A stretch of 32,981 nt of DNA from Gemmatimonadota bacterium (GCA_036679645.1 JAZDCY010000045.1:1-32981), one strand, 5' to 3'; shown: positions 4,428 through 25,868, counted from the first letter of the stretch. Numbers and translations are program-made. The notes: generated by a model not told the origin, from the sequence alone.

Positions 4428-4524
4428 GGTCTTACCAACCATCCCCCAATGAAGTACCGTCTCCTGTCCCACCCGCCCCGGCGTGACGGTCCGGATGGGC
4501 TCGTACCGTCCACAGCCAGGTCTC

Positions 4525-5757: not shown

Positions 5758-5784
5758 CCCCGCCTTCTCCGGAGGCGCCGCCCC

Positions 5785-7038: not shown

Positions 7039-9205
7039 CAGCTCCCGGTCCAACGGTCCGCCGCCACGGCGGCTCCGGCTGCGCACGCCGACGGTGCTTC
7101 AGATGGAAGCCGTCGAGTGCGCCGCGGCGTCGCTCGCCATGGTGCTCGCCCACCACGGCCGCTTCGTGCCGCTAGAGGAGCTCCGCGTGGCATGCGGCGT
7201 GTCGCGCGACGGATCCAACGCGGTCCACCTCACGCGTGCGGCCCGGCAGTACGGGCTCGAGGCCCGCGCGTTCAAGCGCGAGCCGGAGGCGCTGCGCCGC
7301 TCCCTCCTGCCGGCCATCATCTTCTGGGAGTTCAACCATTTTCTCGTCGTCGACGGCTACGACGAAGGCGGATTCTACCTCAACGACCCCGCGGTAGGAC
7401 GCCGCCGCGTGACGAACGCCGAGATGGACGAGTCGTTCACCGGCGTCGTCATCGAACTCAACCCCGGACCCGGGTTCACGCGGGGCGGCGCGCGGCCACT
7501 CCTTCTGCCTAGCCTCGTCGCACGGCTCCGCGGGTCCGGGCCGGCCGTGGTGTTCGCGCTGATCGCCGGGCTGTCGCTCGTGGTGCCCGGGCTCATCGTG
7601 CCGATGTTCGCCAAGCTGTTCATCGATCAGGTGCTGGTACAGCACATGTCGAACTGGCTCAGGCCTCTCCTCGTGGGGATGGCCCTGACCGCGGTGGTGC
7701 GCGCGGGACTTGTTTGGCTTCAGCAGTACTACCTGCTGCGCCTCGAGACCAAGCTGGCGGTCACGACGGCGAGCCGCTTCCTGTGGCACGTGCTGCGGTT
7801 GCCGCTCGAGTTCTACTCCCAGCGCTACGCTGGCGAGATCGGCTGGCGGGCCGGGCTGAACGACGAGGTCGCGCAGTTCGTGTCGCGGCGCCTCGCCTCC
7901 ACGGCCATCGACGCGCTGATGATCGTGTTCTTCGGGCTGCTGATGCTGTCGTATGATGTCGTGTTGACCCTAGTGGCGCTGGCGGCCGTCGCCGTCCTCG
8001 CAGCCACTACGCTGCTCGTCAATCGGCGGCGCGTCGAAGGGAGCATGCGCGTGCTGCAGGAAGAGGGCAAAGTCATCGGAACCCTGATGGCCGGCCTCGC
8101 GGCGATCGAGACCCTGAAGGCGTCGGCGATGGAGTCGGACTTCTTCGCGCGGTGGGCCGGACACCAGACCAAGTATCTGGCGGCTGAGCAGTCCCTGGCG
8201 CGCACCACAGCGCTGTTTCTGGCCGTCCCGCCTTTCACATTGGCCGTCACCCACGCGCTGGTGCTGCTGATCGGCGCCCAACGCGTCATGGACGGCGCAT
8301 TCACGCTCGGCACGCTGGTGGCGTACCAGACGTTGGTGGCGAGCTTCATCGGACCGGTCCATCGGTTCGTCAATCTGGCCGAGGCGCTGCAACAGATGCG
8401 CGCGAAGATGGCGCGCATCGACGACGCCATGCGGTACCCGGTCGACGGGCAGGATGACGACCCTGATGCACCGGTCGAGCGGCTCAACGGGCACCTCGAG
8501 ATGCGGAAGCTTTGCTTTGGCTACGCGAAGAACGCCGACCCCTTGCTCCGCGACTTCGACCTGGTGTTGCGTCCCGGCGCACGCGTGGCCCTCGCCGGAC
8601 CTTCCGGATGCGGCAAGTCGACCGTGGCGCGGTTGCTCACCTCCCTCTACCAGCCGTGGAGCGGCGACATCCTGCTGGCGGGAAAGCCGCTGCGGGAGTG
8701 GCCGCGGGCCACCCGCGCGGCCACGGTGGCCATGGTCGATCAGGACATCTCGTTGTTCGCGGGCACCATTCGCGACAATCTGACCCTGTGGGACTCCTCG
8801 GTGCCGAGCGACGCGATCATCACCGCGTGCAAGGATGCGTGCATTCACGACGACGTGATGGCGCGCCCGGGCGGCCTGGACGCGCGCGTGGAGGAGGGCG
8901 GCGGCAACTTCAGCGGCGGCCAGCGGCAGCGGCTCGAGATCGCGCGGGCGCTCGTCTCCAACCCGTCGGTGCTCGTGCTGGACGAGGCGACCAGCGCGCT
9001 CGACGCGGTCACCGAACACCAGATCGACCGTAACCTGCGGCGGCGCGGGTGCACGTGCGTGATCGTGGCGCACCGGCTGTCGACCATACGCGACGCGGAC
9101 GAGATACTGGTGATGGATCGCGGCGCGGTCGTGCAGCGTGGCATGCACGAGGAACTGATGCGCGACGAGCAAGGGCTGTACTACACACTCGCCGCAGAGC
9201 TGTGA
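7031..9205 (+). CDS. NHLM ABC transporter with C39 peptidase domain (TIGR03796-like)
   Basis: PTVLQMEAVECAAASL (catalytic Cys), WEFNHFLVV, LNDPA. Walker A GPSGCGKST, FSGGQRQR, LDEATSALD. Confidence 0.95.
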   Translation: MADSSRSNGPPPRRLRLRTPTVLQMEAVECAAASLAMVLAHHGRFVPLEELRVACGVSRDGSNAVHLTRAARQYGLEARAFKREPEALRRSLLPAIIFWEFNHFLVVDGYDEGGFYLNDPAVGRRRVTNAEMDESFTGVVIELNPGPGFTRGGARPLLLPSLVARLRGSGPAVVFALIAGLSLVVPGLIVPMFAKLFIDQVLVQHMSNWLRPLLVGMALTAVVRAGLVWLQQYYLLRLETKLAVTTASRFLWHVLRLPLEFYSQRYAGEIGWRAGLNDEVAQFVSRRLASTAIDALMIVFFGLLMLSYDVVLTLVALAAVAVLAATTLLVNRRRVEGSMRVLQEEGKVIGTLMAGLAAIETLKASAMESDFFARWAGHQTKYLAAEQSLARTTALFLAVPPFTLAVTHALVLLIGAQRVMDGAFTLGTLVAYQTLVASFIGPVHRFVNLAEALQQMRAKMARIDDAMRYPVDGQDDDPDAPVERLNGHLEMRKLCFGYAKNADPLLRDFDLVLRPGARVALAGPSGCGKSTVARLLTSLYQPWSGDILLAGKPLREWPRATRAATVAMVDQDISLFAGTIRDNLTLWDSSVPSDAIITACKDACIHDDVMARPGGLDARVEEGGGNFSGGQRQRLEIARALVSNPSVLVLDEATSALDAVTEHQIDRNLRRRGCTCVIVAHRLSTIRDADEILVMDRGAVVQRGMHEELMRDEQGLYYTLAAEL

Positions 9206-12186
9206 TGCGCCACACCCGCACGTTCGCGCGGTTCTCTACCGCGGTCGCGGTGCCGAGCCTGGAGGAATCGTCGGCGGCGGTACTGCGGGCCGAGCCGTAC
9301 CCCGACGCCTTTCCACTGACTGCCAACAGGCCGCTGCGCCTGGACGATCCCGCCCAGCTCTGGATAGTAGTGAGCGGCGAGGTCGATCTCTTTCATGTCC
9401 TCGGCAGCGGCGACACCTACCTGGCGCACCGCCGCTACGTCGGGACGCTGTCGGCGGGCGAGGTAGTGGCGGGTGCCCGTCCCGTGCCCGAGACCGGCGA
9501 CGGCGTGCTGATTGCGGTCGGCTTCGGCGGCGCCCGGCTCCACGCGGTTCCCCGCGCCGCGATCGACGAGGCGGCTGGCGACGGCCGGATCGCGCGTGCC
9601 CTGGCGAACGGTCTGGCGGAGACGATGGGCCGGGCGATGTACCGCTCGAGCCGCTCGTCGGCGCGCCCGGTGGATCTCAGCGAGCGGCGCCTCTCGCTGG
9701 ACGCCGGCACGGCCATCACCGCGTTGGCCGACGTGATGTGGTTCCAGCTCGATGACGGTGAGCTGGCCCTGGGCGGTGACGTCCCTGTCGCCCCCTCGCC
9801 GCTCTACCTACCGCTGGCGCGCGGCATGTGGTTCACGGCGGGAAGCGACGGCACGGCGCTGGTGGTGGTCGACACGTTCACCGCCTTCGCCGAACGGTCG
9901 ATCGGCGCTGCGCTCGTGCGGGCGTGGGGCATCTTCATCGCGTGGCTCGCGGCGCAGGCGGATAAGGACGACGCGGCCGAACGCGCCCGGCTCGAGCGGC
10001 GGGTTGAGGGCGAGCGCGCGAAGCATGCGAGCGCGCTGGCGAGTCTCGCGGGCTTGTTGCAGGGGCGCGGCGGCGCCCAGCCGGCCGAGCCGCAGGGCGA
10101 TCCCCTGCTCGACGCCTGTGGGATGATCGGCACGGCGTGCGGGATTGCCTTTCGGGCGCCGCCGGTGGCCAACGGCCGTCCCCCGGCGGCCGGTGACGCC
10201 GCCGACCCGCACCGGGATCTGGTGATGCGGATCTGCGCCGCGTCGCGGGTGCGCTATCGCCGGGTCACGCTGCGCGACGGATGGTGGGAATCCGACGCGG
10301 GGCCGATCCTCGGGTTCCGCGCGCGCGACTTTGCGCCGGTGGCACTGTTGTCCTCCCCCGACGGCGGGTACCTCCTGCACGACCCGGCGTCGGGGGAACG
10401 CGTGCCGGTAACCCCCGACGTCGCCGCCGGGCTCAGCAGGCAGGGTTACACCTTCTACGTGACGGCGCCGCCGGGCGCGCTCAATGCGCGCATCCTCGGC
10501 CGCCTGCTCGGGCGCGAGGTGTGGCCGGACGTGCGGCGCGTCCTGGGTTTCGTTGCGGCCGGTGCGGCGCTGGGCCTCGGCCTGCCCGTAGTCACGGGGT
10601 TGATGTTCAACCGCGTCATCCCCAGTGCCTCGATGGCCAACGCTGTGACCCTCGTCGCGGCGCTGCTGGCCCTCGTGGTGGCAACGGCCGCGGTCGACAT
10701 CGCGCGCGCCTTCGCGCTCATCCGGGTGGAGACCCGCACTAACGGCCTTCTGCAAGCGGCGGTCGTCGACCGCCTGCTCGCCCTGCCGCCTCAGTTCTTC
10801 CGCGCGTACTCGGTGGGCGACCTCGCGCTGCGCGCCGCGGCGGTCAACGCCGCGCGGCAGGTCCTCACCTCGCTGGCGCTGACGTCGCTGTTCGGCGGCG
10901 CCCTGGTCATCACCAGCGTGTCGCTGATGGCATGGTACAGTCTCAAGCTCGCGCTCGCGGCGTGCGGCATCCTGGCCGGCAGCGCCCTGGTGACGACTCT
11001 GGTCGGACTCTACGCCCTGCCCCACGAACGCCGCCGCCAGATGCTGCACGGCTCCATCAGCACGCTCGTGTTCGAAATGCTGAGCGGCGTCGCCAAGCTG
11101 CACGTGGCCGCGGCCGAGCGCCGCATGTTCGCGCTCTGGGGCGCGCAGTTTCGAGCGCAAAAGGTCGCGGCGTTTCGCGCCGGCGCGGCGGCCGCGGCGC
11201 TCGCCTCGTTCAACGCCCTGCTGCCGATCTTCGCCGCCGGCATCGTGTTCGTGGTCGCGGCTCGAGTGTTCGCGGCGGCCGGCGGCCTTACCACCGGCGA
11301 CTTCATCGCCTTCCTCACGGCCTTCGCGTCGGCGCTCGCCGCCGGTATCGGCGTGAGCACGACGATCGTGTCCCTGCTGAACGTGATACCCCTCGTCGAG
11401 CGGGCCGCGCCGATACTGTCGACCGCGCCGGAGGTGGATGACGCCAGACCCGACATCGGCACGATCAGCGGCCGCATCGAGATGTCCCACCTGACCTTCG
11501 GCTACACCGCCGGCACTGCCCCAGTGCTCGACGACGTGTCGTTCGAGACCCGGCCGGGCGAGTTCGTGGCGGTCGTGGGACCGTCCGGCGGCGGCAAGTC
11601 GACCATGCTGCGGCTATTGCTCGGCTTCGAGAAGCCCGACCGCGGCGCCGTCTACTTCGACGGGTACGATCTTGCGAGCGTCGACGTCGCGTCGGTGCGG
11701 CGCCAATGCTCCGTGGTCTTGCAGCACAGCAAGCTGCTCGCGGGCGACCTGTTCACCAACATCGTGGGCGCGTCGCCGCTCACCCTCGACGACGCCTGGC
11801 GCGCCGCCGACCTCGCCGGACTCGCCGACGACATCAGCGCGATGCCGATGGGGATGTACACCGTGATCAGCGAAGGGGGATCGACGCTGTCCGGCGGCCA
11901 GCGGCAGCGCCTGCTCATCGCGCGCGCGCTGGTGCGCCGGCCGCGTATCGTGTTCTTCGACGAGGCGACGAGCGCGCTCGACAACCGTTCCCAGGACATC
12001 GTCACCCGGAGTCTCGAAAGGATGCAGGCGACCCGCATCGTGATCGCGCACCGCCTCACGACCGTCCAGCGCGCCGACCGTATCCTCGTGGTCGCGAAAG
12101 GACGCATCGTCCAGCAGGGACGGTACGACGACCTCATCACCACCGACGGCCTGTTCAAGGATCTCGCCCAGCGGCAGCTCGTGTAG
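9205..12186 (+). CDS. NHLM ABC transporter ATP-binding/permease (TIGR03797-like)
   Basis: ATG overlaps the upstream TGA. N-terminal LWIVVSGEVDLF, RYRRVTLRDGWWESDAGPILG. GPSGGGKST, LSGGQRQR, FDEATSALD. Confidence 0.93.
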   Translation: MRHTRTFARFSTAVAVPSLEESSAAVLRAEPYPDAFPLTANRPLRLDDPAQLWIVVSGEVDLFHVLGSGDTYLAHRRYVGTLSAGEVVAGARPVPETGDGVLIAVGFGGARLHAVPRAAIDEAAGDGRIARALANGLAETMGRAMYRSSRSSARPVDLSERRLSLDAGTAITALADVMWFQLDDGELALGGDVPVAPSPLYLPLARGMWFTAGSDGTALVVVDTFTAFAERSIGAALVRAWGIFIAWLAAQADKDDAAERARLERRVEGERAKHASALASLAGLLQGRGGAQPAEPQGDPLLDACGMIGTACGIAFRAPPVANGRPPAAGDAADPHRDLVMRICAASRVRYRRVTLRDGWWESDAGPILGFRARDFAPVALLSSPDGGYLLHDPASGERVPVTPDVAAGLSRQGYTFYVTAPPGALNARILGRLLGREVWPDVRRVLGFVAAGAALGLGLPVVTGLMFNRVIPSASMANAVTLVAALLALVVATAAVDIARAFALIRVETRTNGLLQAAVVDRLLALPPQFFRAYSVGDLALRAAAVNAARQVLTSLALTSLFGGALVITSVSLMAWYSLKLALAACGILAGSALVTTLVGLYALPHERRRQMLHGSISTLVFEMLSGVAKLHVAAAERRMFALWGAQFRAQKVAAFRAGAAAAALASFNALLPIFAAGIVFVVAARVFAAAGGLTTGDFIAFLTAFASALAAGIGVSTTIVSLLNVIPLVERAAPILSTAPEVDDARPDIGTISGRIEMSHLTFGYTAGTAPVLDDVSFETRPGEFVAVVGPSGGGKSTMLRLLLGFEKPDRGAVYFDGYDLASVDVASVRRQCSVVLQHSKLLAGDLFTNIVGASPLTLDDAWRAADLAGLADDISAMPMGMYTVISEGGSTLSGGQRQRLLIARALVRRPRIVFFDEATSALDNRSQDIVTRSLERMQATRIVIAHRLTTVQRADRILVVAKGRIVQQGRYDDLITTDGLFKDLAQRQLV

Positions 12187-12210
12187 GGGCAGTCCGCGGC
12201 AGGTCGTCGC

Positions 12211-13623
12211 ATGCTCGGGAGACCGCTCATGTTACTCGCGGCTGGATTCTTCCTCCTTTGTCGTGCGCTTTCCGCGCAGGCCCCCGGCGAAGTGGGGCCG
12301 ACGAGTGCCGATACCGTCGTCTTGGCCCTCGACGACGTGCTGCGCACGGCACTGGCGCAGAACCTCCGGCTCCGCGCCGCGTCGGCGGAGACCCGGGGCG
12401 CGGCAACCTTCCGAACCACGGCGTGGTCGCGATTCGACCCAGCAGTGAACGTCGGAGGCGAGTACAACGGGAGTGGCGTCGGCGTCCAGCTCGTCGGTGA
12501 GCTGCCGACGGGCGCCACGTACCTCCTCGGCTCGGTGGCGCCGTCGACCCTCCCCGGCGATCCCGTCTTCGCCGACGCGATCGTCGCGAGAATCGATCAG
12601 CCCGTGTTGCGCGGGCTGGGGCTCTACAGCGCGCGTAACGCCATTCGGGCGGCGGACGAGGGGGTGGAAGCGTCACGTGCCCGCCTGAGCCGCACGCGTG
12701 ACGAGGTGGCGGCCGTCGTCCGGCTGGCCTACGCGATCCTGGTGGAGCGGCACCGACAGGAGGCCACCGCCGAGCGCTCGGTGCGGCGCGCGCTGGAGCT
12801 GCTCGATGCCTACACGTCGCTCCGGGCCATCGAGAGGATCACCGAGGTGGACCTCATCACCGCGAAGCTGGGCGTAGCGTCGCGCCAGGCCACGCTGCTC
12901 CAGGTGCGTCGCGAGCGCCGGGCCGCCGAGGATGCGCTCCTGTTCGCGGTGTACGGCGCCGGAGCGCGCGCCGTGCTCGCCCGTGCAGGCGACGCCGTGT
13001 GGATCCCGCGGGACACGGTGGTCGACGCCCCGTACGTTCCCTCGATGGAGGACGCCACCGCACGCGCCCTCGCGGCGCGTCCCGATCTGGAGGCCGCGCG
13101 CCACCACGTGGCCCAGGCGCGGTACCGTTCGCAGCAGGCACGCAACGCGGCGCTTCCCACGCTCAACCTATCGGCGTCTTTCAGCAGCACCCGCAGCGAC
13201 ACCCTGCTGGGACCCGGCGTGGCGTTCGACGCGCGCGATCAGGGGTGGCGTTTCGGCGTGGTGCTGTCGCGCCCCTTGTGGAACTCGGGCGCCACTGCCC
13301 AGCGCGACCGGGCCACGGCCGCCGCCGATCAGACGGAGGCGCAGCTCATCGAGGCGGAGAACGTCGTGCGCCGGGAAGTGCGGGCCGCAGTCCGCGACAT
13401 CGAACTGGCGCGCGAGCAGGTGACCATCGCCGCGGACGCCTCGCGCCTGGCCCGCCAACAGTACGAGATGGAGCGCGAACGCCTGACGCTCGGGCTCACC
13501 GACATCTTCCGCGTACTCCAGTACGAGGAACAGGTGGGGACCGTGGAGCGGGCGGAGGCGGAGGCATGGCGGGCGTACGCGACGGCCGTTGTGCAGTACC
13601 GGTTGGCGATGGGGGAGGGCTAG
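12211..13623 (+). CDS. TolC-family outer membrane efflux protein
   Basis: Signal peptide; LDDVLRTALAQN, ALAARPDL, ALPTLNLS, ERERLTLG; last gene of the type I secretion operon. Confidence 0.85.
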   Translation: MLGRPLMLLAAGFFLLCRALSAQAPGEVGPTSADTVVLALDDVLRTALAQNLRLRAASAETRGAATFRTTAWSRFDPAVNVGGEYNGSGVGVQLVGELPTGATYLLGSVAPSTLPGDPVFADAIVARIDQPVLRGLGLYSARNAIRAADEGVEASRARLSRTRDEVAAVVRLAYAILVERHRQEATAERSVRRALELLDAYTSLRAIERITEVDLITAKLGVASRQATLLQVRRERRAAEDALLFAVYGAGARAVLARAGDAVWIPRDTVVDAPYVPSMEDATARALAARPDLEAARHHVAQARYRSQQARNAALPTLNLSASFSSTRSDTLLGPGVAFDARDQGWRFGVVLSRPLWNSGATAQRDRATAAADQTEAQLIEAENVVRREVRAAVRDIELAREQVTIAADASRLARQQYEMERERLTLGLTDIFRVLQYEEQVGTVERAEAEAWRAYATAVVQYRLAMGEG

Positions 13624-14223: not shown

Positions 14224-16128
14224 TCAGCTGCGGTGCTCTTCCGTCGCCAGGGCGCGAGCGATGTAGTCCGGCGGCACGGTCGTACGCGGCACGGCATGCG
14301 CGAACCACTCGCGCACATCGAGGCCCAGCCCATCCCCTTCCTGAAACCGGTACGTAGCATCTCGCAAGCCCTTCCCAAGAGCGTCGTGATCGGTGCCCGT
14401 CGGGTCGTGGAACGGGAGGCTGAACTCCGTGAAGACGTGGTCGCCCTGCAGCACACCGGTGAGCTGGATACCGTACTCCTCGGGGTTTTGCCCGACCGGG
14501 CTGTGTCGCGTGGTGACGAAGCGGTGCCAGTTTCCCGACTGAAGACATCCGGCTGCGAAGAGCTGTCGCACGTACTCGAGGCTGTCGATCGTCTCCTGAA
14601 GGGTTTCGGTCGGGAAGCCGTACATGAGGTACGCGTGGACGACGATTCCGTGCTCGCTGAAGTGCCGGGCGACCCGCGCGACCTGGGTGACGGAAACGCC
14701 TTTCTTCATCTTCTCCAGGAGCCGGTCGGATGCTACCTCGAGACCGCCGCTGACCAGGACGCATCCGGCGCGTGCCATGAGTTCGGTCAGCTCGCGCGTG
14801 AACGACTTCTCGAAGCGGATGTTCCCCCACCACGAAATCGAGAGATCCCGTTCGAGCAGGCGCGCGGACAGCATCCGTAGCAGGGCGGGGGGCGCCGCCT
14901 CGTCCACCCAATGAAATCCCGAGAGACCCGTCTCCGCGCGTAGCTGTTCGATGTGCTCGATGAGGCGGTCCGCCGTCTGCGGCTCGTAGCGCCGGATGTA
15001 ATCGAGCGTGGTGTCGCAGAACGAGCACTTGCGCCAGTAACACCCGTGCGCAAGCGTGAGCTTGTTCCATCGTTTCGACCAGATCCGGTGTGCCGGCGTC
15101 GCCGATGTGAGAACCGAGATGTATCGCTCGATGGGCAGACCGTCGTACACCGGCGTGTTCGCTTCGGCAAACGGGACATCCTGTTCGTTCCTGGAGGAAT
15201 GGTAGCTCACCTTACCGTCTACGCGCCGGAAGGTGCGGAAGAGACCCTCCGGGCCACGCTCGTTTCGCAGGTATTCGAGCAGGCACGAGAGGGGGCGCTC
15301 ACCGTCGTCCAGCGTGACGAAATCGAAATAGTCGAACAAGCGGGGGTCGGAGATCGCGCGAAGGTAGGTGTTGACGTACCCACCGCCGAGGGCGACGTGC
15401 ACGTCGGGTCGTTCACGCTTGATCACCTCGGCAATGCGGAAGGCACCGGCCACGTTACCGGGGAAGGGTGCGGACAGGCCAACCACGTCGGGCTCGTGCG
15501 TCGCGAGACCGTCGAGCGTGATCTCCCGGATGAGCTGGTTGGTTGGGGTCTCTCTCTGTTCCTCCAGAAAGCGGTGGACGGCATCGAACGCGGTCGCCGT
15601 GCCGACGTGGTCCGCGAACGAGTAGAGGGCGAACCCGGGATCGACCAGTGCGATGACGTCCGTGATGTCGAGCAGGTAGTAGCTCGCCGCCAGTTGCGCA
15701 CGCTCACCGTCTTCGAGCGACGCGACGTTGTGCGGCATCCCGGGGATGGGACAATGGTCGTCAAACAGCTGTCGCAGGCGTGCGCCTTCGGGCAGGTATC
15801 CGCGTTCGTTGAGGTGAACGCCCACCGCGGGGTCTTTGGTCTGGAGGTAGGACATGACCGGCTCGACGGTATCCAGATACCGGTCGAGATGGGTGAGGAA
15901 GTGCGTTCGATTCTGGAGGTCTCGGGGCCCGACCGGTTGGCATTGCCCGACCGCGTGGCCGACCCGTTGGAGTCCGCTCCGCGACAGCAGCCGGTGCGCC
16001 AACTCGAGCGACCAGTCGGCCTGATGCGCGTCGACGCCGATCGAGCGGAGATGGCCCGTGAGCGCGGCCGTTGACGGATACGGAGTGTTCAGGTCCGCCA
16101 TCGGAGGGATCAACAGCAGCACGCGCAT
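14224..16128 (-). CDS. Cobalamin-binding domain radical SAM protein
   Basis: PDVVGLSAPF...VALGGGYVN B12-binding region, TLDDGERPL, CX4CX2C motif GCYWRKCSFC, GGLEVASDRLL, HAYLMYGFPTET. Confidence 0.9.
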   Translation of the reverse strand: MRVLLLIPPMADLNTPYPSTAALTGHLRSIGVDAHQADWSLELAHRLLSRSGLQRVGHAVGQCQPVGPRDLQNRTHFLTHLDRYLDTVEPVMSYLQTKDPAVGVHLNERGYLPEGARLRQLFDDHCPIPGMPHNVASLEDGERAQLAASYYLLDITDVIALVDPGFALYSFADHVGTATAFDAVHRFLEEQRETPTNQLIREITLDGLATHEPDVVGLSAPFPGNVAGAFRIAEVIKRERPDVHVALGGGYVNTYLRAISDPRLFDYFDFVTLDDGERPLSCLLEYLRNERGPEGLFRTFRRVDGKVSYHSSRNEQDVPFAEANTPVYDGLPIERYISVLTSATPAHRIWSKRWNKLTLAHGCYWRKCSFCDTTLDYIRRYEPQTADRLIEHIEQLRAETGLSGFHWVDEAAPPALLRMLSARLLERDLSISWWGNIRFEKSFTRELTELMARAGCVLVSGGLEVASDRLLEKMKKGVSVTQVARVARHFSEHGIVVHAYLMYGFPTETLQETIDSLEYVRQLFAAGCLQSGNWHRFVTTRHSPVGQNPEEYGIQLTGVLQGDHVFTEFSLPFHDPTGTDHDALGKGLRDATYRFQEGDGLGLDVREWFAHAVPRTTVPPDYIARALATEEHRS

Positions 16129-17211: not shown

Positions 17212-18456
17212 ATGGGAGTAGAACTTCGTCCGCTCGGCGTCCGCTGCAACATCCACTGCCAGTACTGCTACCAGAATCCGCAGCGGGACGCGGGTAACCT
17301 CGCCGATTCCTACGATATCGACCGCATGCAGGCCGCAATCGAAGCGGACGGGTCGCACTTCACGCTCTTTGGTGGTGAGGCGTTGCTCGTTCCCGAGGCG
17401 GATCTCGAGCGCTTGTGGGCGTGGGGACTCGAGCGGTATGGCTACAACTCGGTCCAAACGAACGGGACGCTGATTTCCGACCGGCACATCGAGCTGTTCA
17501 AGAAGTACAAGGTGCACGTCGGGATCTCCGTCGATGGTCCAGGGGACCTCAACGACGGGCGCTGGGCCGGTACGTTGGAGCGGACGCGCGAGCTGTCGGC
17601 GCGAACCCACGAAGCCATCGAACGGCTCTGCAGCGAGGGCATCCCCCCTGCCCTCATCGTGACGCTCCACCGAAACAACGGGACGGCAGACAAGCTCCCG
17701 CAGATGCACGACTGGTTCCGGTACCTCGAGACGCTGGGCATCTCGTCGGCGAGGATTCACATCCTCGAGGTCGACAACGAGTGGGTGCGGAGCAAGTACG
17801 CGCTCACGATCGAGGAAAACCTCACGGCGTTCATGAGCTTTGCCGATCTCGAGCACGAACTCGAGACGCTCAAGCTCGATCTCTTCCACGACATGCGGAA
17901 TCTGCTGTTGGGCAACGATGGCCAGACGACCTGTGTGTGGAACGCGTGCGATCCGTACACCACCCGAGCCGTTCAGGGTGTCGAGGGGGACGGGCAGCGC
18001 AGCAATTGCGGCCGCACCAACAAGGACGGGATCGATTTTACCAAGGCGAATACCGAAGGGTTCGAGCGATACATCGCGTTGTATCACACCCCGCAGGAAG
18101 ACGGTGGGTGTAATGGGTGTCGCTTCTTCCTGATGTGTAAGGGACAGTGCCCGGGGACGGCCATCGACGGCGACTGGCGCAACCGCACCGAGCACTGTGA
18201 AGTCTGGAAGGGCCTCTACCGGCACGTCGAAGGGACGTTGCTCGATCAGGGGCAGCGGCCGCTGTCCGTCATGCCGGAGCGGAAGCTCGTGGAGCAGTTC
18301 TTCCTCGACACGTGGGCCGGAGGGTCGAACACTTCTATCGAGCAGGCGGTCAAGCGTCTCAACGAACGCGGCACGGCCGCCGCAGGCGCAGTGCACCAGG
18401 GCGTGCGGCACGGGGACTCGAACCACGGCGACCACACCGATCATGCCGCCAACTGA
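17212..18456 (+). CDS. Radical SAM/SPASM peptide maturase with C-terminal HxD tail
   Basis: CNIHCQYC, FGGEALL, QTNGTL, GISVDGP. SPASM-like Cys set TTCVWNAC...NCG...CNGCRFFLMCKGQCP...HC. Tail HGDSNHGDHTDH. Confidence 0.92.
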   Translation: MGVELRPLGVRCNIHCQYCYQNPQRDAGNLADSYDIDRMQAAIEADGSHFTLFGGEALLVPEADLERLWAWGLERYGYNSVQTNGTLISDRHIELFKKYKVHVGISVDGPGDLNDGRWAGTLERTRELSARTHEAIERLCSEGIPPALIVTLHRNNGTADKLPQMHDWFRYLETLGISSARIHILEVDNEWVRSKYALTIEENLTAFMSFADLEHELETLKLDLFHDMRNLLLGNDGQTTCVWNACDPYTTRAVQGVEGDGQRSNCGRTNKDGIDFTKANTEGFERYIALYHTPQEDGGCNGCRFFLMCKGQCPGTAIDGDWRNRTEHCEVWKGLYRHVEGTLLDQGQRPLSVMPERKLVEQFFLDTWAGGSNTSIEQAVKRLNERGTAAAGAVHQGVRHGDSNHGDHTDHAAN

Positions 18457-19948
18457 CCGCCTGGATTTCGTCCTGCACGATTTCACCCGGCTGAGCTGGG
18501 TAAGCGACGCGGCGCGAGACCTCTGGGGTCCTCGCCTGCACCGTGTGACCGAGGCCTGGTTCGAGATCGAATGGCGCGCGGTCCTCGCGGGCCTGCGCCG
18601 GTGTGGCGTCACGGTCACCACGCCGGAAGGACTCATCGAGCGCGCCGCCAAATGGGTCGGGCACGGGCTGAACGCGCTGCCCGTGGAGCTCCACGGCGCG
18701 CGCGACAGCTATGCCAGTACGGGCGAGAAAGCCCGCCTCGGCGAGCCGTTCGTGTTCCGCATCGCGGTCGGCATCCCCGAAGACGTGGCGGAATTCAAGC
18801 AGGTTTGGGACGCGGCGGACAATCGCGGCATCGGGGGGTTCCTCGGATATCCCGAGTGCTGCCTGGACTTTTTCGAGGAGCATTGGGTCGACGGCCAGAT
18901 GATCGATACGACGTGGCCGATGGCGGTCGCGAGCAGCACGTCGCCAAACGGCACGCGGGACCTCGAGATCACCGGACCGCCCGAAGCCAACATTCTGTGG
19001 CGCTGGATGGGCGCGCGCGCGGTGCCGCACCTCCCCTGCCGCAGCGACTGCGAGGCGACGGTCGAGTTCGGCCGCGCGCTGATCGACGTCGGGCGCGGGG
19101 CCGGGTTCGACGAAGAGATGGACTGGTTACTCGAGATCCTCTCGTGGCCGGTCGAGTGGTCGGCGCTCCATGGCATCGCGGAAATCAAGACGCCCATTCT
19201 CAAGGTCGTCTCCCGCGCGGACGCGACGCGGTCCAAGTACACGGTTCGGCGACCCGGAACGGCGTACCCCGAGGCCGGAGCGCAGGGGCTCAAGTTCCCG
19301 TATCAGATGCCGCGCAAGACGATCACGGAATCGCGCGGCTACAAGCGGGGTCTCGACAACCCGATCGAGGCCGCACGCGCGCGTCCCGGTTGGTACGCGA
19401 GCGACAACGGGTTCGCCTCGATCGCAGCGATGGACCAGGCGCACACGCCGATCATCGGAGTGGCCGATGCGACGCTCGATGGCGAGGCCGCCAGTGTCCT
19501 TGACCTCGGGTGCGGAAACGGCGCCCTGCTCGAAGGCCTTCGCGACGCCAATCCCAAGGTCGTCCCGTACGGCGTGGAGATCGATGCGGAGCGCCTGGAG
19601 CACGCCCGGACACTGTTCCCCGATCACGTCGAGAACTTCACGGTCGGGGACATGTTCAGCGAAGAGATCTGGCAAGCCGGCCGTCGCTACGCGCTGGTCC
19701 TGCTCATGCCCGGTCGGTTGTTGGAAGCCGGGCCCGAACGCGCCGCCTGGCTGCGCGAGCAGATCAAAGCGCATTGCGACCATGTACTCGTGTATGCCTA
19801 CGGAGACTGGCTCACCAAGTACCGCGACCTGCAGGGGTTGGCCCGACGCGCGGGCCTGTCGCTGCTCAGTTCGGGCTCGGGCGCAACGGTCAGTCTCGCA
19901 AAATACCGGAAAGCTGGCGAGCAGCTTTCCGAGGCTGTGACATCATAA
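18443..19948 (+). CDS. Cys-motif domain (DUF483-like) fused to a class I SAM-dependent methyltransferase
   Basis: FLGYPECC and PHLPCRSDC motifs; C-terminal VLDLGCGNG, YGVEID, VGDMF. ATG at 18443 overlaps the rSAM 3' end. Confidence 0.7.
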   Translation: MPPTDRLDFVLHDFTRLSWVSDAARDLWGPRLHRVTEAWFEIEWRAVLAGLRRCGVTVTTPEGLIERAAKWVGHGLNALPVELHGARDSYASTGEKARLGEPFVFRIAVGIPEDVAEFKQVWDAADNRGIGGFLGYPECCLDFFEEHWVDGQMIDTTWPMAVASSTSPNGTRDLEITGPPEANILWRWMGARAVPHLPCRSDCEATVEFGRALIDVGRGAGFDEEMDWLLEILSWPVEWSALHGIAEIKTPILKVVSRADATRSKYTVRRPGTAYPEAGAQGLKFPYQMPRKTITESRGYKRGLDNPIEAARARPGWYASDNGFASIAAMDQAHTPIIGVADATLDGEAASVLDLGCGNGALLEGLRDANPKVVPYGVEIDAERLEHARTLFPDHVENFTVGDMFSEEIWQAGRRYALVLLMPGRLLEAGPERAAWLREQIKAHCDHVLVYAYGDWLTKYRDLQGLARRAGLSLLSSGSGATVSLAKYRKAGEQLSEAVTS

Positions 19949-19988
19949 CACTATTTCCTACTCGTTGTCGAATGACTGGGAGGTCATG

Positions 19989-20699
19989 ATGAGTTCTGAC
20001 GAACGTGGCAAGAAGCCGGATCCGGAGGACCATGTCAAGAAAGACCCGGAAGGATCGAGTACAACCCCGGACGGTGACAAGCCAGGGGGCAAGAGCGATA
20101 TCAGCCGTCGAGGACTGATCCGGGCCGGCTGGAGCGTCCCCATCATCATGGGTGTGTCCCTCCCCAAGAACGCGTTCGCGCAGTACGCGCACAGCGACAC
20201 CGCCCCGCACGCCGACACCCACAACGACCACGGTGATCACAGCGACCACGGTGATGCGCCAGGTCAGATACACGAGGATGCCGGTCACAACGATCACGGT
20301 GACACGTTCATTCCCCACGCGGACATTCCGCACCAGGACTTCATCGAAATCCCGCACGCAGACATCGGAACGATCCCGCACGTCGATACCGGACTGCACG
20401 TCGATGTCCTGCCGCACATCGATATCCCGTCGTTGCACGGCGATCTGGGGCACGTGGATGTGACGCCTCACGCCGACCTCGCGCTCCACATCGACGTCAT
20501 TCCGCACACCGATGTCCCGCATGCGGACGCGTCCTTCCACGGCGATGTTGGTGTCCCGGGTATCCACGGCGACATCATCCCGCACGTCGACGTGGGTCAC
20601 GTGGACATCGTCCCCCACTTCGACGTCGGGCACTTCGATGTGGTCCCGCACTTTGATGTGGTCCCGCACGGCGACATCGGCGGTGGGTTCGGGTTCTAG
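19989..20699 (+). CDS. His-Xaa-Asp repeat protein, putative RiPP precursor with Tat-like leader
   Basis: GGGAGG SD before ATG ATG (19986/19989). Leader SRRGLIRAGWSVPIIMGVSLPKNAFA. 172-aa core from 20181 with 29 HxD motifs. Sits among peptide-modifying enzyme genes. Confidence 0.85.
   Translation: MSSDERGKKPDPEDHVKKDPEGSSTTPDGDKPGGKSDISRRGLIRAGWSVPIIMGVSLPKNAFAQYAHSDTAPHADTHNDHGDHSDHGDAPGQIHEDAGHNDHGDTFIPHADIPHQDFIEIPHADIGTIPHVDTGLHVDVLPHIDIPSLHGDLGHVDVTPHADLALHIDVIPHTDVPHADASFHGDVGVPGIHGDIIPHVDVGHVDIVPHFDVGHFDVVPHFDVVPHGDIGGGFGF
20220..20303 (+). repeat. 18-bp coding repeats (H-N/S-D-H-G-D)
   Basis: CACAACGACCACGGTGAT (20220), CACAGCGACCACGGTGAT (20238), CACAACGATCACGGTGAC (20286). Confidence 0.85.
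20631..20669 (+). repeat. 18-bp tandem coding repeat (HFDVVP x2)
   Basis: CACTTCGATGTGGTCCCG CACTTTGATGTGGTCCCG CAC, with one synonymous mismatch. Confidence 0.85.
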
Positions 20700-20759: not shown

Positions 20760-20785
20760 CTATATGGATGTAGGAGGTGGCTACG

Positions 20786-21925
20786 GTGAAAGTGGAAAGT
20801 GTCACGGACATCGACTGGAAGCGCACGCCTGAGCCCCAGGCGGATCAGTACGACACGGACGTAGCGGAACGTTTGGCCAAGGGGCGCGGCCCCGACGTGT
20901 CTGGACTCGAGAACGCCCCACGCATCTTCGATGGCGCCGTACCGATCGAGGAGACCACTGCGGAGTCGGTGCAGTTCCCCGAGTCGTGCGTGCCCGCACC
21001 GGCCGATCACCCGAACATTCAGCAGGCCGTCGAGTTGATCCGGCTCTGGCCGACCGTATTCACGCAGTGCCAGCGTCTGATCCGCAAAGCGAACTTCTTC
21101 GTCGACACGGCGGTGCCGGAGAAGGGGTTCATCGGCTCGCTGTCGCGGGCCGGAGCCGACGGGTTCGGGACCGTCGCCGTGACCGTGAACGATCCCGTGG
21201 CGCTGGCCGAGTCCATCGTGCACGAGATGGGGCACAACAAGTTGCGCGCGCTCGGGGTCGATTTTACCAGTGCCAAACGGATCGTCACGAATACCGAGGG
21301 CGATCAGTACAAGAGCCCCGTACGATACGACTGCCTGAGGCCTATGACGGCCATTCTGCATGCGATGTGGTCGTACACGTACTTGACGGCGCTCGATGTC
21401 GAGATCCTGCGCGCCTCGTCCGACCATGCGGTGAAACATCGTGTCGCGCAGCAATCACTGGCCCTGAACCTGCCCAGGTTGGACTTCGGGCTCGACGTGC
21501 TGCAGTCGCATGTGCAGACGGACGAGGCAGGGAAGCAGTTCTTCTTCGGGTTCTTCCAGTGGCTCGATCGGGTTCGTGCGGCCGGCTATGACATTCTCGA
21601 GCGGGTCGGCATCAAGCCCCTTCCGTTCGTCCACCCCGATGACGCGCAGGGCAAGACCAATGGACCCCGGCCGGCGCGGGTCAACGGCCTCCATCAGTAT
21701 CGGCTTGGCGAAGAGACGCTGATCTACGTCCCCGACGCCGAGAAGGCCCACGCGCTCAACCCGTCGGCCGTCGCCATTTTCGATCTGTGCGACGGCTCGC
21801 GTACGGTTCAGGACATCTGCCGCGAGTTGGGCCCGCTCGTGGGCAAAACGGCAGGCGAACTCACGCCGGACGTGGAGCAGGGCGTGACACAGCTCCGCGA
21901 GCTCGGCCTCCTCCAGCCGGACTGA
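20786..21925 (+). CDS. aKG-HExxH peptide beta-hydroxylase-like protein fused to a C-terminal PqqD/RRE domain
   Basis: AESIVHEMGHNKL...YKSPVRYDCLRPMTAILHA; C-terminal AHALNPSAVAIFDLCDGSRTVQDI...LRELGLL. AGGAGG lies 8 nt before GTG 20786 (alternative start 20777). Confidence 0.88.
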   Translation: MKVESVTDIDWKRTPEPQADQYDTDVAERLAKGRGPDVSGLENAPRIFDGAVPIEETTAESVQFPESCVPAPADHPNIQQAVELIRLWPTVFTQCQRLIRKANFFVDTAVPEKGFIGSLSRAGADGFGTVAVTVNDPVALAESIVHEMGHNKLRALGVDFTSAKRIVTNTEGDQYKSPVRYDCLRPMTAILHAMWSYTYLTALDVEILRASSDHAVKHRVAQQSLALNLPRLDFGLDVLQSHVQTDEAGKQFFFGFFQWLDRVRAAGYDILERVGIKPLPFVHPDDAQGKTNGPRPARVNGLHQYRLGEETLIYVPDAEKAHALNPSAVAIFDLCDGSRTVQDICRELGPLVGKTAGELTPDVEQGVTQLRELGLLQPD

Positions 21926-21931
21926 AGAGTC

Positions 21932-22783
21932 GTGCGGTCTGCGTCGCCTGCCACGACGATGGCCGTCGCGTTTCAAGGCTGCGCTGTAGCCGTCCGGTCG
22001 ACGGCAGTCGAGGTGATTGACGAGTTCCGGCGCGTCTGCGGTACCATGGTCGTCGTCCCGGACGCGGTCACTCCGGTTGGGCACCTGCAGGTCGATCGTA
22101 CCGGCGAGGTCTATGTCGTCAGCGGGGACACCGACGTGGCGCTCGGTGACGGGTCCCTGGCAGACGTCATGCGCTGCCTGCGCTATTCGGTCATCCAGCT
22201 CTTCATTCAAGCCTTTCCCGGCCTGTACTGGTTCCACGCGGGCGCTGTCGCCTGGGGGGGAAACGCGGTGCTGATTCCGGGCCACCGTGGGCGCGGCAAG
22301 AGCACGCTGGTGACCGGCCTTGGCGATCACGGGTGGGACTACCTGTCGGACGACGTGGTCCCGCTCGACCCGCAAACACACACGCTGCTGCCCCTCCCAT
22401 TCGCTCCTGCGAAGCGCGAGTACCCCGGGCGTCGGATGCGATCGGTGTGGCTCCGGACAACTCCCAAGACGGACGTGACCGTGCCTGGCGAGCGCGTGCG
22501 CAGCGGCCCGACGCCCGTTGCGGCATTCGTGATCCCCCGATACCGGCAGGACGCTCACACCAAGGTCGCCGCGTTCTCGCCAGCCCAGGCCGCCGCGTTG
22601 CTGCTGGAGAACTGCTGGAACTTCGGCGCGCCCCGGGCCAATGCCGTGCGTTACGTCTGCGCACTCGCGGGCCGGCTCCCGGCGGTCCGTGCCGTCTTCT
22701 CGGACGGGGCCGATGCGGCGCGCGTCCTCGCTGGCACGCGCGAAGAGTGGATGATGGACCGCGCCGCGGCGCGCGAGGCCTGA
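21932..22783 (+). CDS. HPr kinase-like (HprK-related) kinase
   Basis: FHAGAV, P-loop GHRGRGKSTL, YLSDDVVPL. Confidence 0.85.
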   Translation: MRSASPATTMAVAFQGCAVAVRSTAVEVIDEFRRVCGTMVVVPDAVTPVGHLQVDRTGEVYVVSGDTDVALGDGSLADVMRCLRYSVIQLFIQAFPGLYWFHAGAVAWGGNAVLIPGHRGRGKSTLVTGLGDHGWDYLSDDVVPLDPQTHTLLPLPFAPAKREYPGRRMRSVWLRTTPKTDVTVPGERVRSGPTPVAAFVIPRYRQDAHTKVAAFSPAQAAALLLENCWNFGAPRANAVRYVCALAGRLPAVRAVFSDGADAARVLAGTREEWMMDRAAAREA

Positions 22784-22788
22784 GCGTC

Positions 22789-23994
22789 GTGGATATACAG
22801 CAGTTCAAGGTCCTGGGCAGGGAAGTCGACGAGGCATGGCGTGCGCGGCAATACGACGAGTTTCAGTTTTCCGAGGTTGCGCTCGAGGTGCTCGGCAACG
22901 CCTCACTATCGACATCCGTCGATCTGCAGTCGATTCTCGAGCGGTGTTTGGATCCCGCGGCGAACGAGTTTCGGATAAGGGGATCGTTTGGCGATCTCCC
23001 GTTGATCGTCTACGAAACACCGCAGTTCTACGTTCAGGTGCTGATGTGGACCACCGCCACCACCAACATTCATCAGCACGGCTTCTCCGGCGCGTTCCGC
23101 GTGTTTGCCGGATCGAGCATCCACAGCCAGTACGAGTTCCACACCCGCGAGCGCATCAACTCGCGTATCTCGGTTGGGGATGCCGAGCTCAAGACCATCG
23201 AGCTGCTCCGTCAGGGACAGACCCACGAGATCATCTCGGGCAGCGGCCTGACGCATGCGCTGTTCCATCTCGATCTGCCGAGCGTCTCTGTAGTGGTTCG
23301 GACGCACGCGGAACCGTGGTCGTCACCGCAGATGACCCTTTACCCGCCGCACCTCGCGGTCGATACCGTGACGTTGGGTTCCGATCCGGTGTGCAACGCC
23401 ATCGCCAAATGCCTGCGAGTCATGCGACACGCCCAGGACCCCCGGATCGCCGACTCCATCATCTCCCTGGTACCACGCCTCGACTTCGCACGCATCTACC
23501 AGGTCTTTCAGCGCCATCGACAGCAGCTGGGTAGTGAGGAAGGGCGCTTCCTAGATGCCGTCCGGGAGCGACATGGTCAGCTGACCGACCACATGCTCGA
23601 ATCGATGCAGTACGAGCGCCGACTCGAGAAGATCCGCGAGCTACGCGGGACGGTGCGAGATCTCGAGTTGCGGTTCTTTCTGGGTGTGCTGCTCAATGCG
23701 CCTAACCAGAAGCGCATCTACGAACTTGTGGCGGCCCAGTATCCCGAGGTGGATCCGGAGGACAAGGTGGTGGAATGGCTTACCGGTCTCCTGCGCACCG
23801 GAGAGTTCCCGGCCAAGGCGGGTGTGTCTCTCCTGAGGCCCTTGTTGCGCGGCTCGAGCCTCGAAGAGACCGTCCGGGCCGTTGGGGACGCAATCGACGA
23901 TACGGAGGCCCAACCCCCAGCGGCTCTCGTGGCTACGATGTGTGAACAAATCAAGGGCGTTCCGGCCTTCGACCGACTGTGGATTCGGAACTGA
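22789..23994 (+). CDS. Cupin (cysteine dioxygenase-like HxH...H) domain protein
   Basis: VQVLMWTTATTNIHQHGFSGAFRVFAGSSIH...LTHALFHLD; helical C-terminal extension. Confidence 0.65.
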   Translation: MDIQQFKVLGREVDEAWRARQYDEFQFSEVALEVLGNASLSTSVDLQSILERCLDPAANEFRIRGSFGDLPLIVYETPQFYVQVLMWTTATTNIHQHGFSGAFRVFAGSSIHSQYEFHTRERINSRISVGDAELKTIELLRQGQTHEIISGSGLTHALFHLDLPSVSVVVRTHAEPWSSPQMTLYPPHLAVDTVTLGSDPVCNAIAKCLRVMRHAQDPRIADSIISLVPRLDFARIYQVFQRHRQQLGSEEGRFLDAVRERHGQLTDHMLESMQYERRLEKIRELRGTVRDLELRFFLGVLLNAPNQKRIYELVAAQYPEVDPEDKVVEWLTGLLRTGEFPAKAGVSLLRPLLRGSSLEETVRAVGDAIDDTEAQPPAALVATMCEQIKGVPAFDRLWIRN

Positions 23995-25868
23995 GGCCCG
24001 CGGGACAGGCGCACGTCCCGGCTGACACGCCTGTGGCGCTCGTGAACATGCCGTTTGCCACGATACGGCACCCGTCGATTCAGATCGGGTTGCTCCAGGC
24101 CCACGGGTGCCGCGCCGACATTCCGCTACGCAGCCTGTACGCCAACCTCGACTTCGCGGCACGCATCGGTTTTCAGCTCCACGAGGCGCTGGCGATTCAT
24201 CGCGGGGCCCTCATCGGAGAGTGGTTGTTCACGAAGGCTGCGTTTCCGGAGCATGAAGCCGCCGACGAGTTCCCTCGACGGTACGGGAACATCGTCGATG
24301 AGGTCGCCGATGTCGCCGGCGTGCCGCGCGCGGATGTGGTGGCCATCAGGGACGTCCACGCGCCCGCGTTCGTCGCCGAGATGGCCGACCGGCTCGTCGA
24401 AGCGGGCACACGGGTCGTGGGCTTCACGTCCACCTTCGAGCAGAACGTGGCCTCCCTCGCGCTGGCACGTGCGGTCAAGGAGCGCGATCCCGCCATCGCG
24501 ACGGTGTTCGGCGGGGCCAACTACGACGCCGACATGGGTCGCGCGTATCTCGACGCGTACCCCTGGATCGACATCGCGGTGGCCGGTGAGGCGGACGACA
24601 TCTTCGTCCCGCTGATCCAGGCCCTCCTGGACGGAGCCGCCATACCGGAACTCATCGGCGTCAACACACGGACCAGTAACGGCAACGGCACCCGGGGGAC
24701 GTACCGCGGGTCGATGGACGCGCTCCCCGTGCCAAACTACGACGACTACTTCGAGGCCATTCGGCGCAATGGTTTCCATCAAGAGGAGATCAAGTGGAGC
24801 CTCGCCCTACCGTTTGAATCGTCGCGTGGCTGTTGGTGGGGTGCCAAGCATCACTGCACCTTCTGCGGGTTGAACGGCATGGCGTGGCGGGCCAAGTCGG
24901 TGGAAACGGTGGTGTCGGACATCAGCACCTTGGCGACGAAGTATCATGTCAGTTCCTTCCTCGCCGTCGACAACATCATTGGTGTTGACATGCTGCGCGG
25001 CCTGGTGTCGCAGATGACCGAGGAGGAGTACGACTACGATTTCTTCTACGAGATCAAGGCGAACCTCACGAGGGCGCAGATCCGCGGCATGCGCGACGCC
25101 GGTATTCTCCGCGTCCAGCCGGGTATCGAGAGCCTGAGTTCGCCGGTCCTCTCCCTGATGCGGAAGGGCATCACGGGAATCCAGAACATCAACACGCTAC
25201 GCTGGTTGCGATTCTACGGCGTGCAGGCAATCTGGAATATCCTCTTCGGCTTCCCGGGCGAAGCACAGGAAGATTACGACCGCCAGCTCGAGGTGATCGA
25301 GCTGACCCCTCATCTCCGGCCCCCGAAAGGGGCCGGCCGCATCTGGCTGGAGCGGTTTGGGCCGTACTTCAAGGAGGCGGAGGCCTTTGGGTTCGACAAC
25401 CTGCGGCCCGACGAGTGCTACTCGTATATCTATCCCCCGCCGCTCTCGCTGCACGATGCCGCGTATTTCTTTCAGAGCGATCCCACGCAGACGCTCACCG
25501 ACGACGTGTACGCTCCCACGCAACGAGCCGTCGAGCGGTGGCAGGAGATGTGGCGGCAGCCCAAGCGTCCCTATCTCCTCGTCACCAAGACGCACCCTGG
25601 GATCAGGGTCATCGACGGGAGGAGCAACCAGCAAGACCCCACCACGCGGTTCTACAAGGAGCCGCTGTCGCACGTCTACCTGTATTGCAGCGATCGGCCG
25701 CGTGGCATGCGTTCGATTCTCGAGTTCGCTTCCGAGAAGCGGCTCGAGTCATCCGATATCGAGGGCGACGTGCAGGACGTGCTGCAGACGTGGGTGCGTG
25801 ATGGCGTGATGATAGAGGAGGATGGGCGATATCTGAGCCTGGCACTCCCGCGGATGCCGTGGCGTTAG
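23979..25868 (+). CDS. B12-dependent RiPP maturation radical SAM C-methyltransferase (TIGR03975-like)
   Basis: ALVNMPF, PSIQIGLL, VVGFTSTFEQN, FGGANY, CX7CX2C motif SRGCWWGAKHHCTFCGLN, QPGIESLS, WNILFGFPGE. Confidence 0.92.
   Translation: MDSELRPAGQAHVPADTPVALVNMPFATIRHPSIQIGLLQAHGCRADIPLRSLYANLDFAARIGFQLHEALAIHRGALIGEWLFTKAAFPEHEAADEFPRRYGNIVDEVADVAGVPRADVVAIRDVHAPAFVAEMADRLVEAGTRVVGFTSTFEQNVASLALARAVKERDPAIATVFGGANYDADMGRAYLDAYPWIDIAVAGEADDIFVPLIQALLDGAAIPELIGVNTRTSNGNGTRGTYRGSMDALPVPNYDDYFEAIRRNGFHQEEIKWSLALPFESSRGCWWGAKHHCTFCGLNGMAWRAKSVETVVSDISTLATKYHVSSFLAVDNIIGVDMLRGLVSQMTEEEYDYDFFYEIKANLTRAQIRGMRDAGILRVQPGIESLSSPVLSLMRKGITGIQNINTLRWLRFYGVQAIWNILFGFPGEAQEDYDRQLEVIELTPHLRPPKGAGRIWLERFGPYFKEAEAFGFDNLRPDECYSYIYPPPLSLHDAAYFFQSDPTQTLTDDVYAPTQRAVERWQEMWRQPKRPYLLVTKTHPGIRVIDGRSNQQDPTTRFYKEPLSHVYLYCSDRPRGMRSILEFASEKRLESSDIEGDVQDVLQTWVRDGVMIEEDGRYLSLALPRMPWR

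Follow-up and report, generated by a model that had tools for sequence, protein, structure and literature searches.

Which part does the protein encoded directly behind a radical S-adenosylmethionine (SAM) gene play, and on which substrate? The question is raised by a 32,981-nucleotide stretch of a Gemmatimonadota bacterium assembly (GCA_036679645.1 JAZDCY010000045.1:1-32981), referred to here as the window, in which a gene on the plus strand (18443..19948) overlaps that of a radical SAM enzyme (rSAM) and encodes a 501-aa fusion of a DUF483-related rSAM partner domain, the N-domain, and a class I methyltransferase. The product is a real, conserved enzyme subunit. We consider it highly probable that the N-domain protein is the partner of the rSAM and acts on repeats. 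A more specific reading, which we hold tentatively and at slightly less than an even chance, makes it the second subunit of a triceptide-like His-x-Asp (HxD) maturase, with SAM chemistry of its own in the N-domain.

In the translation of 18443-19948, the motif GYPECC occupies residues 135-140 and HLPCRSDC residues 196-203. The open reading frame (ORF) of the rSAM ends at 18456, resulting in a 14-nt overlap; a longer ORF starting at GTG 18197 is an extension across the rSAM gene, and relatives begin at the equivalent of residue 5. A preliminary description of the window had proposed an N-terminal part with these two motifs, a class I SAM domain and an overlap with the rSAM gene, all of which were confirmed by translation and Pfam. 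The N-terminal part exists but is shorter than the roughly 320 residues given there, as the N-domain ends near residue 305 (~305 aa). The Pfam match of this copy to DUF483 (PF04467) is weak (E 0.027, 14.9-16 bits) and falls under the 25-bit cut-off. The likeness to DUF483 that had been suggested was nevertheless borne out: 117 of 133 aligned relatives matched DUF483 at E<=1 (best 4e-8), and a profile of the N-domain family aligned, with 94% probability (E 1.4e-7), to the DUF483 proteins that stand alone in archaea, with a GYPxCC...PCSxxC core common to both. We retrieved 1043 family proteins among 7998 scored candidates, and the DUF483 family falls into 1438 clusters when grouped at 50% identity. 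A survey of 400 genomes from the phylum gave, besides the genome of the window, one marginal match (E 9e-4). It is sporadic and, therefore, not a housekeeping family, which disposes of the objection considered in the preliminary description.

The upstream gene (17212..18456, plus strand) encodes a radical SAM/SPASM enzyme without an N-terminal RRE (recognition element of peptide maturases). Its CxxxCxxC motif and eight SPASM-region Cys were invariant across 83 sequences, and its nearest relatives among NCBIfam profiles are the cyclophane and dynobactin maturases, all matched far under the cut-offs. We compared the best 80 of 106 confirmed GTDB stretches (cellular loci) with 33 viral loci, several of which are near-duplicates. 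An orthologous rSAM gene was present on the same strand in 74 of the 80 cellular and 31 of the 33 viral loci (105/113), and in all eight loci lacking it the partner gene was at most 325 nt from a contig edge. The gap between both genes was at most 100 nt in 70 of the 74 cellular loci. In the reverse test, seeded with the rSAM (best 80 of 124 metagenome stretches plus 13 viral ones), the N-domain was found in 66 of the 68 loci with at least 600 nt downstream; the other two had short upstream DNA. The pairwise identities of rSAM and partner correlated across the 80 loci (rho 0.53; best of 500 permutations, 0.25), with the caveat that kin are not independent. Natural fusions were also found, both rSAM-DUF483 and rSAM-DUF483-methyltransferase (P0144, P0128), as were N-domains fused to HExxH or to PqqD-HExxH. 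Three loci (L057, L060 and L065) have an extra, unassigned domain of ~300 aa behind the N-domain, placed in L057 between the N-domain and the methyltransferase. A full rSAM, fused partner and HxD peptide locus was also seen in a Nitrososphaeraceae archaeon bin (L036).

Complex prediction for the rSAM (residues 1-392) and the N-domain gave a score of 0.91, against 0.00 for the best of three controls. Of 157 solved complexes, 116 attained the mark set for this score, as did 2 of 215 mismatched pairs; because own alignments were used and ligands included, these figures apply here only approximately. At least 94% of contacts agreed between runs, and the predicted local distance difference test value (pLDDT) of the partner was at least 87. 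No relatives of the N-domain were detected by PDB sequence searches, so there was no solved sequence relative for the model to recall. The predicted interface joins the SPASM region of the rSAM (260-299 and 319-324) to residues 7-25, 242-265 and 280-300 of the partner. On the partner, the predicted docking surfaces are an N-terminal strand facing the rSAM (residues 7-25, with R16 and W19; 18461..18517, plus strand) and the LHGIAE sheet plus tail facing SPASM (residues 242-300; 19166..19342, plus strand). Invariant residues at this interface include R286, L290, R323 and N324 of the rSAM, and W19 and L242-I245 (LHGIA) of the partner. The docking parts are missing from short archaeal DUF483, and the conserved R52, C139/C140, D155, H196, C199 and C203 lie outside the confident interface residues; the N-domain, therefore, resembles a DUF483 core to which a clamp for docking on the rSAM has been added, as far as the model goes. 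The predicted complex supports binding between rSAM and N-domain and, with co-occurrence in 105 of 113 loci and the natural fusions, upholds the partnership first suggested in the preliminary description.

The likely substrate is encoded immediately downstream (19986..20699, plus strand). It is a 237-aa protein with a twin-arginine-like leader (SRRGLIRAGW...AFA/Q), in which 29 of 30 His residues belong to HxD triplets; 10000 shuffles gave a mean of 4.9 triplets and a maximum of 14. Using a criterion of at least six H-x-D/N per 60 aa, we identified repeat proteins in 57 of the 80 cellular and 27 of the 33 viral loci (84/113), while 20 shuffled loci reached at most two; the earlier proposal of a link to HxD substrates is thereby supported. 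Many loci without repeat proteins are short contigs. Two kinds of repeat protein occur in the cellular loci: short ones that have an RR leader and large ones that carry an HxD tail. A strict pattern detected a twin-arginine leader in 23 of 57, and some have a lipoprotein-like Cys. The C-terminal tail of the rSAM in the window (18395-18453) itself bears three HxD triplets, and 39 of 103 rSAM orthologues have at least one in their last 60 aa, a count made without a control. Judging from these tail sequences, self-modification or leaderless recognition is suggested.

In phages, it is tail-region proteins that terminate in the arrays, and one of them matches collagen-like tail fibre families; the repeats also employ H-x-N, F-x-N and Y-x-D. 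F-x-N outnumbers H-x-D in some phage repeat proteins (L102:2908-3945, with 37 F-x-N; L100; L105). In phage phiLo, a protein with 72 HxD lies 3.3 kb from the rSAM module (L115:12236-13660). In the Thermus phage Cumys, the module's third gene, Cumys_13 (L114:3697-4728), encodes a protein with a GSxW-repeat N-terminus and 54 HxD triplets. A preprint on Thermus phages describes, in its accessible part, a trio of rSAM, DUF483 and a third gene, as well as DUF483 fusions to a methyltransferase or an rSAM, and suggests DNA modification (bioRxiv 10.1101/2024.08.14.607894). Homologues near deazapurine genes in cyanobacterial genomes, reported in the same part of that preprint, are in line with a DNA-modifying module. 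We regard this as very improbable, given that Cumys_13 ends a baseplate/tail block, that cellular loci contain peptide-tailoring genes (HExxH, PqqD, HprK-like), and that the nearest relatives of the rSAM are peptide maturases. The cultured phages Cumys and phiLo make the HxD system testable.

A partner that docks on SPASM need not be a catalyst. The N-domain could be a structural Zn fold that stabilises SPASM and presents leaderless repeats in place of an RRE, leaving all methylation to the class I domain. Several observations fit such a scaffold: the absence of an N-terminal RRE from the rSAM; the unrelated N-termini of the substrates, which comprise twin-arginine leaders (23/57), large proteins and phage fibres; the HxD triplets on the enzymes' own tails (39/103 rSAMs, again without a control); the fusion of the N-domain to tailoring domains as varied as methyltransferase, HExxH and PqqD; and the location of the invariant LHGIA and W19 at the interface. 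Nevertheless, R52, C139/C140, D155, H196, C199 and C203 are conserved outside the confident interface, and the core stands alone in methanogens without docking parts, suggesting a function of its own. We judge the scaffold a real possibility, about one chance in three by our estimate.

The residues away from the interface include a conserved Cys/His set. C139, C140 and C203 were invariant in all 133 sequences; C199 was kept in 130, with His in the other three, and H196 in 131. In short DUF483 proteins, His replaces the third Cys in 46 cases out of 100. Cys-to-His ligand exchange is typical of Zn sites, and the swap in relatives, therefore, leads us to read a Zn site rather than an Fe-S centre. 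The preliminary description had proposed a metal or Fe-S site; the metal part is plausible, and the exchange favours Zn over Fe-S. From conservation, the stretch with C139, C140, H196, C199 and C203 (18857..19051, plus strand) likely holds Zn through its four Cys together with H196.

Because the methyltransferase dominated a full-length model built from 36 sequences, the N-domain was folded alone, reaching a pLDDT of 95.9 with 133 sequences. The core fold (residues 33-153; 18539..18901, plus strand) is shared with DUF2023/PG1857 and perhaps, weakly, with the cysteine methyltransferase NleE, a non-Rossmann SAM enzyme; residues beyond ~153 were barely tested by the fold searches. The top match was PG1857/DUF2023 (2guk; Z 8.9-9.4, 103-104 aligned). 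NleE (4r29) matched with a VIA Z of 5.4-5.7 (root-mean-square deviation 3.0, 98 aligned) and was second in Foldseek (probability 0.87, E 0.11). These two alignments span the core through the GYP helix, and nearly all other top rows end at about model residues 125-130. NleE binds SAM via Arg107, Glu191 and Tyr212, with Arg107 most critical for SAM binding and R107A dead, according to the accessible part of PMC4239114. The structural alignment starts by pairing residue 38 of P0001 with NleE 93; if ungapped from there, it would place R52 (18596-18598, plus strand), a putative SAM-carboxylate arginine, on Arg107. The best placement of the family profile on NleE, first of 209 positions (shuffle p 0.001-0.002), also puts R52 on Arg107. 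Of 133 sequences, 129 have R or K at position 52 and 123 have F or Y at position 144. F144 ends a second motif, G131-Y136...F144, within the same core (18539..18901, plus strand). When the four families sharing this motif (G-x-x-L-G-Y...aromatic at +8) were pooled, NleE Tyr204 was the best site, placing F144 on Tyr212 (p 0.016, post hoc). The NleE kinship of the N-domain is thus a lead, with about an even chance at best, and SAM chemistry performed by the N-domain itself is a suggestion that we put just short of evens.

Under the tentative maturase reading, the upstream rSAM would offer its SPASM domain to the N-domain as a docking site and, by analogy with triceptide synthases, would staple each aromatic-x-Asp/Asn triplet, joining His C2 to Asp C-beta. 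The NleE-like core would bind a second SAM via R52 and F144 and alkylate the motif, most simply by N-methylation of His, with Zn presumably held by the four Cys and H196. The fused class I methyltransferase would add optional extra tailoring. In bacteria, the substrates would be large secreted proteins as well as peptides or lipopeptides exported by the twin-arginine route; in phages, they would be proteins of the tail region.

Several points weigh against this proposal. On the side of the fold, the NleE Z is under 8, a level treated as common, and the better match, 2guk, has no known activity. A direct hhalign comparison of N-domain and NleE was not significant, with 0.5% probability and an E value of 0.12 that did not improve on the controls (E 0.12-0.67). 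The second motif of the N-domain family alone ranks third on NleE, the pooled first motif on NleE gave p 0.25, and short DUF483 was not placed on Arg107 (rank 93/209). No conserved equivalent of Glu191 was found among the 133 N-domain sequences. The interface, moreover, explains much of the conservation, which fits a non-catalytic role. On the side of the rSAM and its substrates, the enzyme scores 33-71 bits against cut-offs of 310-450 for the named synthase families AmcB, YhhB, GrrM, XyeB and FxsB; several long loci (L032, L043, L044, L068 and L070 among them) have no arrays or only short ones; and two triceptide synthases, HtkB and HaaB, need no subunit of this kind, as stated in the accessible part of PMC11499958. 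Further searches gave no match to PF20798 (NleE) for the 18443-19948 protein or its 133 relatives, while NleE itself scored 414 bits; the N-domain had no relatives in PHROGs and none at E<=0.001 in a viral fold library.

The fold relatives bear on a further alternative, in which the N-domain is a redox partner that feeds electrons to the SPASM clusters or drains them, acting as a flavodoxin adaptor or through an Fe or Fe-S centre with Cys ligands. DUF2023 shares the G-x-x-L-G-Y motif and the fold with the N-domain (Z 8.9-9.4), and DUF3793 shares the motif (hhalign E 0.002); with DUF483, both families have two motifs in common. Flavodoxin-like genes, recognised by eye from sequence, adjoin DUF2023 in 9 of 13 loci and DUF3793 in 12 of 25 (L212-L224, L255-L279); the DUF2023-fldA link is also found in PMC10434189. 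The predicted docking beside the second SPASM Cys group (rSAM 297-299, 319-324) would suit electron transfer. However, the Cys residues of the N-domain lie outside the confident interface, the replacement of the third Cys by His, seen in 46 of the 100 short DUF483 proteins, is of the kind typical of Zn sites, and DUF2023 and DUF3793 lack the four-Cys set. A redox partner is, in our view, improbable. DUF483, DUF2023, DUF3793 and NleE may form one superfamily.

The second half of the fusion is better defined. The class I SAM domain (residues ~315-490; 19385..19912, plus strand) shows the motifs DNGF..M...H, DLGCGNG, MPGR and YxY, matches Pfam Methyltransf_23 (E 2.5e-6), and has a Rossmann fold with motif I and an acidic motif II (VIA Z ~12 against many class I methyltransferases). 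The closest PDB sequence matches are plantazolicin N-methyltransferases and Hen1, all generic. The domain is part of a fusion in 32 of the 33 viral loci and in 47 of the 80 cellular ones; another 6 cellular loci have it in separate or frameshifted form, and 27 lack it. These shares are biased, as the scan patterns were built from the fused-protein alignment. Since 27 of the 80 cellular loci do without it, the methyltransferase provides optional tailoring and not the core chemistry, and the N-domain is the constant partner. Its acceptor atom may be His N or Asp O, as put forward in the preliminary description, which had also considered isoAsp or aspartimide chemistry; for the latter we found no support. 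In this scenario, the domain would resemble protein isoaspartate methyltransferases (PIMT) and convert the Asp of every triplet into aspartimide or isoAsp, an idea compatible with its intact SAM motifs and with an Asp nearly fixed at +2 from His. Yet neither Pfam nor NCBIfam gave a PCMT/PIMT family match at E<=0.1, the top PDB sequence matches are the generic ones named above, phage substrates also use Asn, and HxD substrates exist without a class I domain (Cumys, phiMa, phiLo). PIMT chains were also absent from the top 50 VIA rows and the top 60 PDB sequence matches, although absence from such lists does not exclude PIMT. Taken together, we rate PIMT-like chemistry as slightly less probable still than the redox partner.

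Short DUF483 proteins offer a view of the core outside the rSAM context. They were detected (E<=1e-23) in 29 of 301 Thermoproteota genomes, which are exactly the 29 genomes with mcrA, a match overstated by kinship; nine further Thermoproteota genomes, without mcrA, had weaker and longer DUF483 matches. In 23 of the 29 short-DUF483 loci (L225-L253, genomes G617-G911), mcrA lies inside the 1.5 kb flank, usually with mcrA followed by DUF483, and others adjoin the McrA YcaO or methanogenesis markers 5 and 15. Named homologues include those of Methanocaldococcus, Methanothermobacter wolfeii and Nezhaarchaeota. This rSAM was absent from the eight longer archaeal DUF483-like loci (L280-L287). Short DUF483 is, thus, a candidate modification or assembly factor of methyl-coenzyme M reductase (MCR). 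Both DUF483 forms adjoin heavily modified protein substrates and, therefore, a role in protein modification is favoured. The gene for the N1-methylhistidine of MCR was unidentified as of 2020, according to the accessible part of PMC7058361. A universal McrA His methylase is disfavoured, since Methanosarcina acetivorans has mcrA and methylhistidine (same part of PMC7058361) and no PF04467 match. A broad generalisation would make DUF483 proteins NleE-fold, Zn-bearing protein methyltransferases, the long form N-methylating His in stapled HxD arrays of phage fibres and of peptides on the bacterial surface, and the short form modifying MCR, possibly as the N1-methylhistidine methylase of some methanogens; as a whole, we consider this unlikely. 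Its tie to mcrA nonetheless makes short DUF483 a specific gene to delete in the search for the enzymes behind the remaining MCR modifications.

The rest of the cluster is largely variable. Behind the likely substrate are genes for an alpha-ketoglutarate HExxH beta-hydroxylase fused to PqqD/RRE (20777..21925, plus strand), a variable tailoring gene, and for an HprK-related kinase-like protein (21932..22783, plus strand), also variable. They are followed by an ORF of ~398 aa (22798-23994) that has no Pfam or NCBIfam match and was not found among the 113 related loci; from its HQH motif, we take it to resemble a cupin dioxygenase. A B12-dependent rSAM C-methyltransferase (23979..25868, plus strand; TIGR03975 above cut-off) is likewise variable, with counterparts in 3 of the 80 other cellular loci. 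A second B12-dependent rSAM gene (14224-16128, minus strand) is divergent from the cluster. Upstream (4483-13623) are a BTAD regulator, HlyD, a C39-peptidase ATP-binding cassette (ABC) transporter, a second ABC transporter and an outer membrane efflux protein. Any link of these upstream genes, the C39-peptidase ABC exporter included, to the cluster would be tentative, as the precursor looks twin-arginine exported.

We found no report of the HxD system, of a DUF483-NleE link or of DUF483 beside mcrA, in a literature search covering mostly journals free of subscription. DUF483 is not mentioned in PMC9635834 (main text and one supplement) or in one supplement of PMC12700198; the 'DUF483' of PMC13350694 is DUF4832 and irrelevant, and PMC12186529 deals with a different system. 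The preliminary description had called the protein uncharacterised, which holds for its function but not for the DUF483-rSAM association and the methyltransferase fusion, already present in bioRxiv 10.1101/2024.08.14.607894. These two links were known before; the docking and the NleE and mcrA links are new here. If true, the maturase reading would describe a radical SAM machine of two subunits whose targets are long repeat arrays, both on exported peptides and on proteins of virus particles, and it would give DUF483 its first fold, partner and testable active site.

Compared with NleE (PDB 4R29, PF20798), the N-domain has a possibly similar alpha/beta core over 98 residues, in which R52 corresponds to Arg107 and F144 probably to Tyr212. 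It differs in its weak scores, the lack of a Pfam match and of a conserved Glu191 equivalent, and in having an in-protein Cys set and an rSAM docking extension. Stand-alone DUF483 (PF04467) has GYPxCC and PCSxxC in common with the N-domain, whereas short DUF483, DUF2023 (PG1857, 2GUK) and DUF3793 are only ~110-200 aa long, lack the docking parts and are tied to mcrA or flavodoxin instead of an rSAM. The 'rSAM module' of the Thermus phages Cumys and phiMa resembles the present locus in its rSAM (54-56% identical), its DUF483 protein (32-36%) and an adjacent third gene; the phage copies, however, lack a class I domain, the present locus is a cellular peptide cluster, and the HxD substrate is not recognised in the accessible text of bioRxiv 10.1101/2024.08.14.607894. 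Triceptides are defined by aromatic-X2-X3 motifs, His-first motifs included, in the accessible part of PMC11499958, and their synthases (HtkB, HaaB, YhhB, XyeB, GrrM/OscB and FxsB), as presented there, share with this system an rSAM/SPASM enzyme and aromatic-x-x motifs. The system described here differs from them in its dozens of motifs per substrate, its use of whole proteins as substrates, an rSAM that scores under all family cut-offs, and a constant, predicted second subunit.

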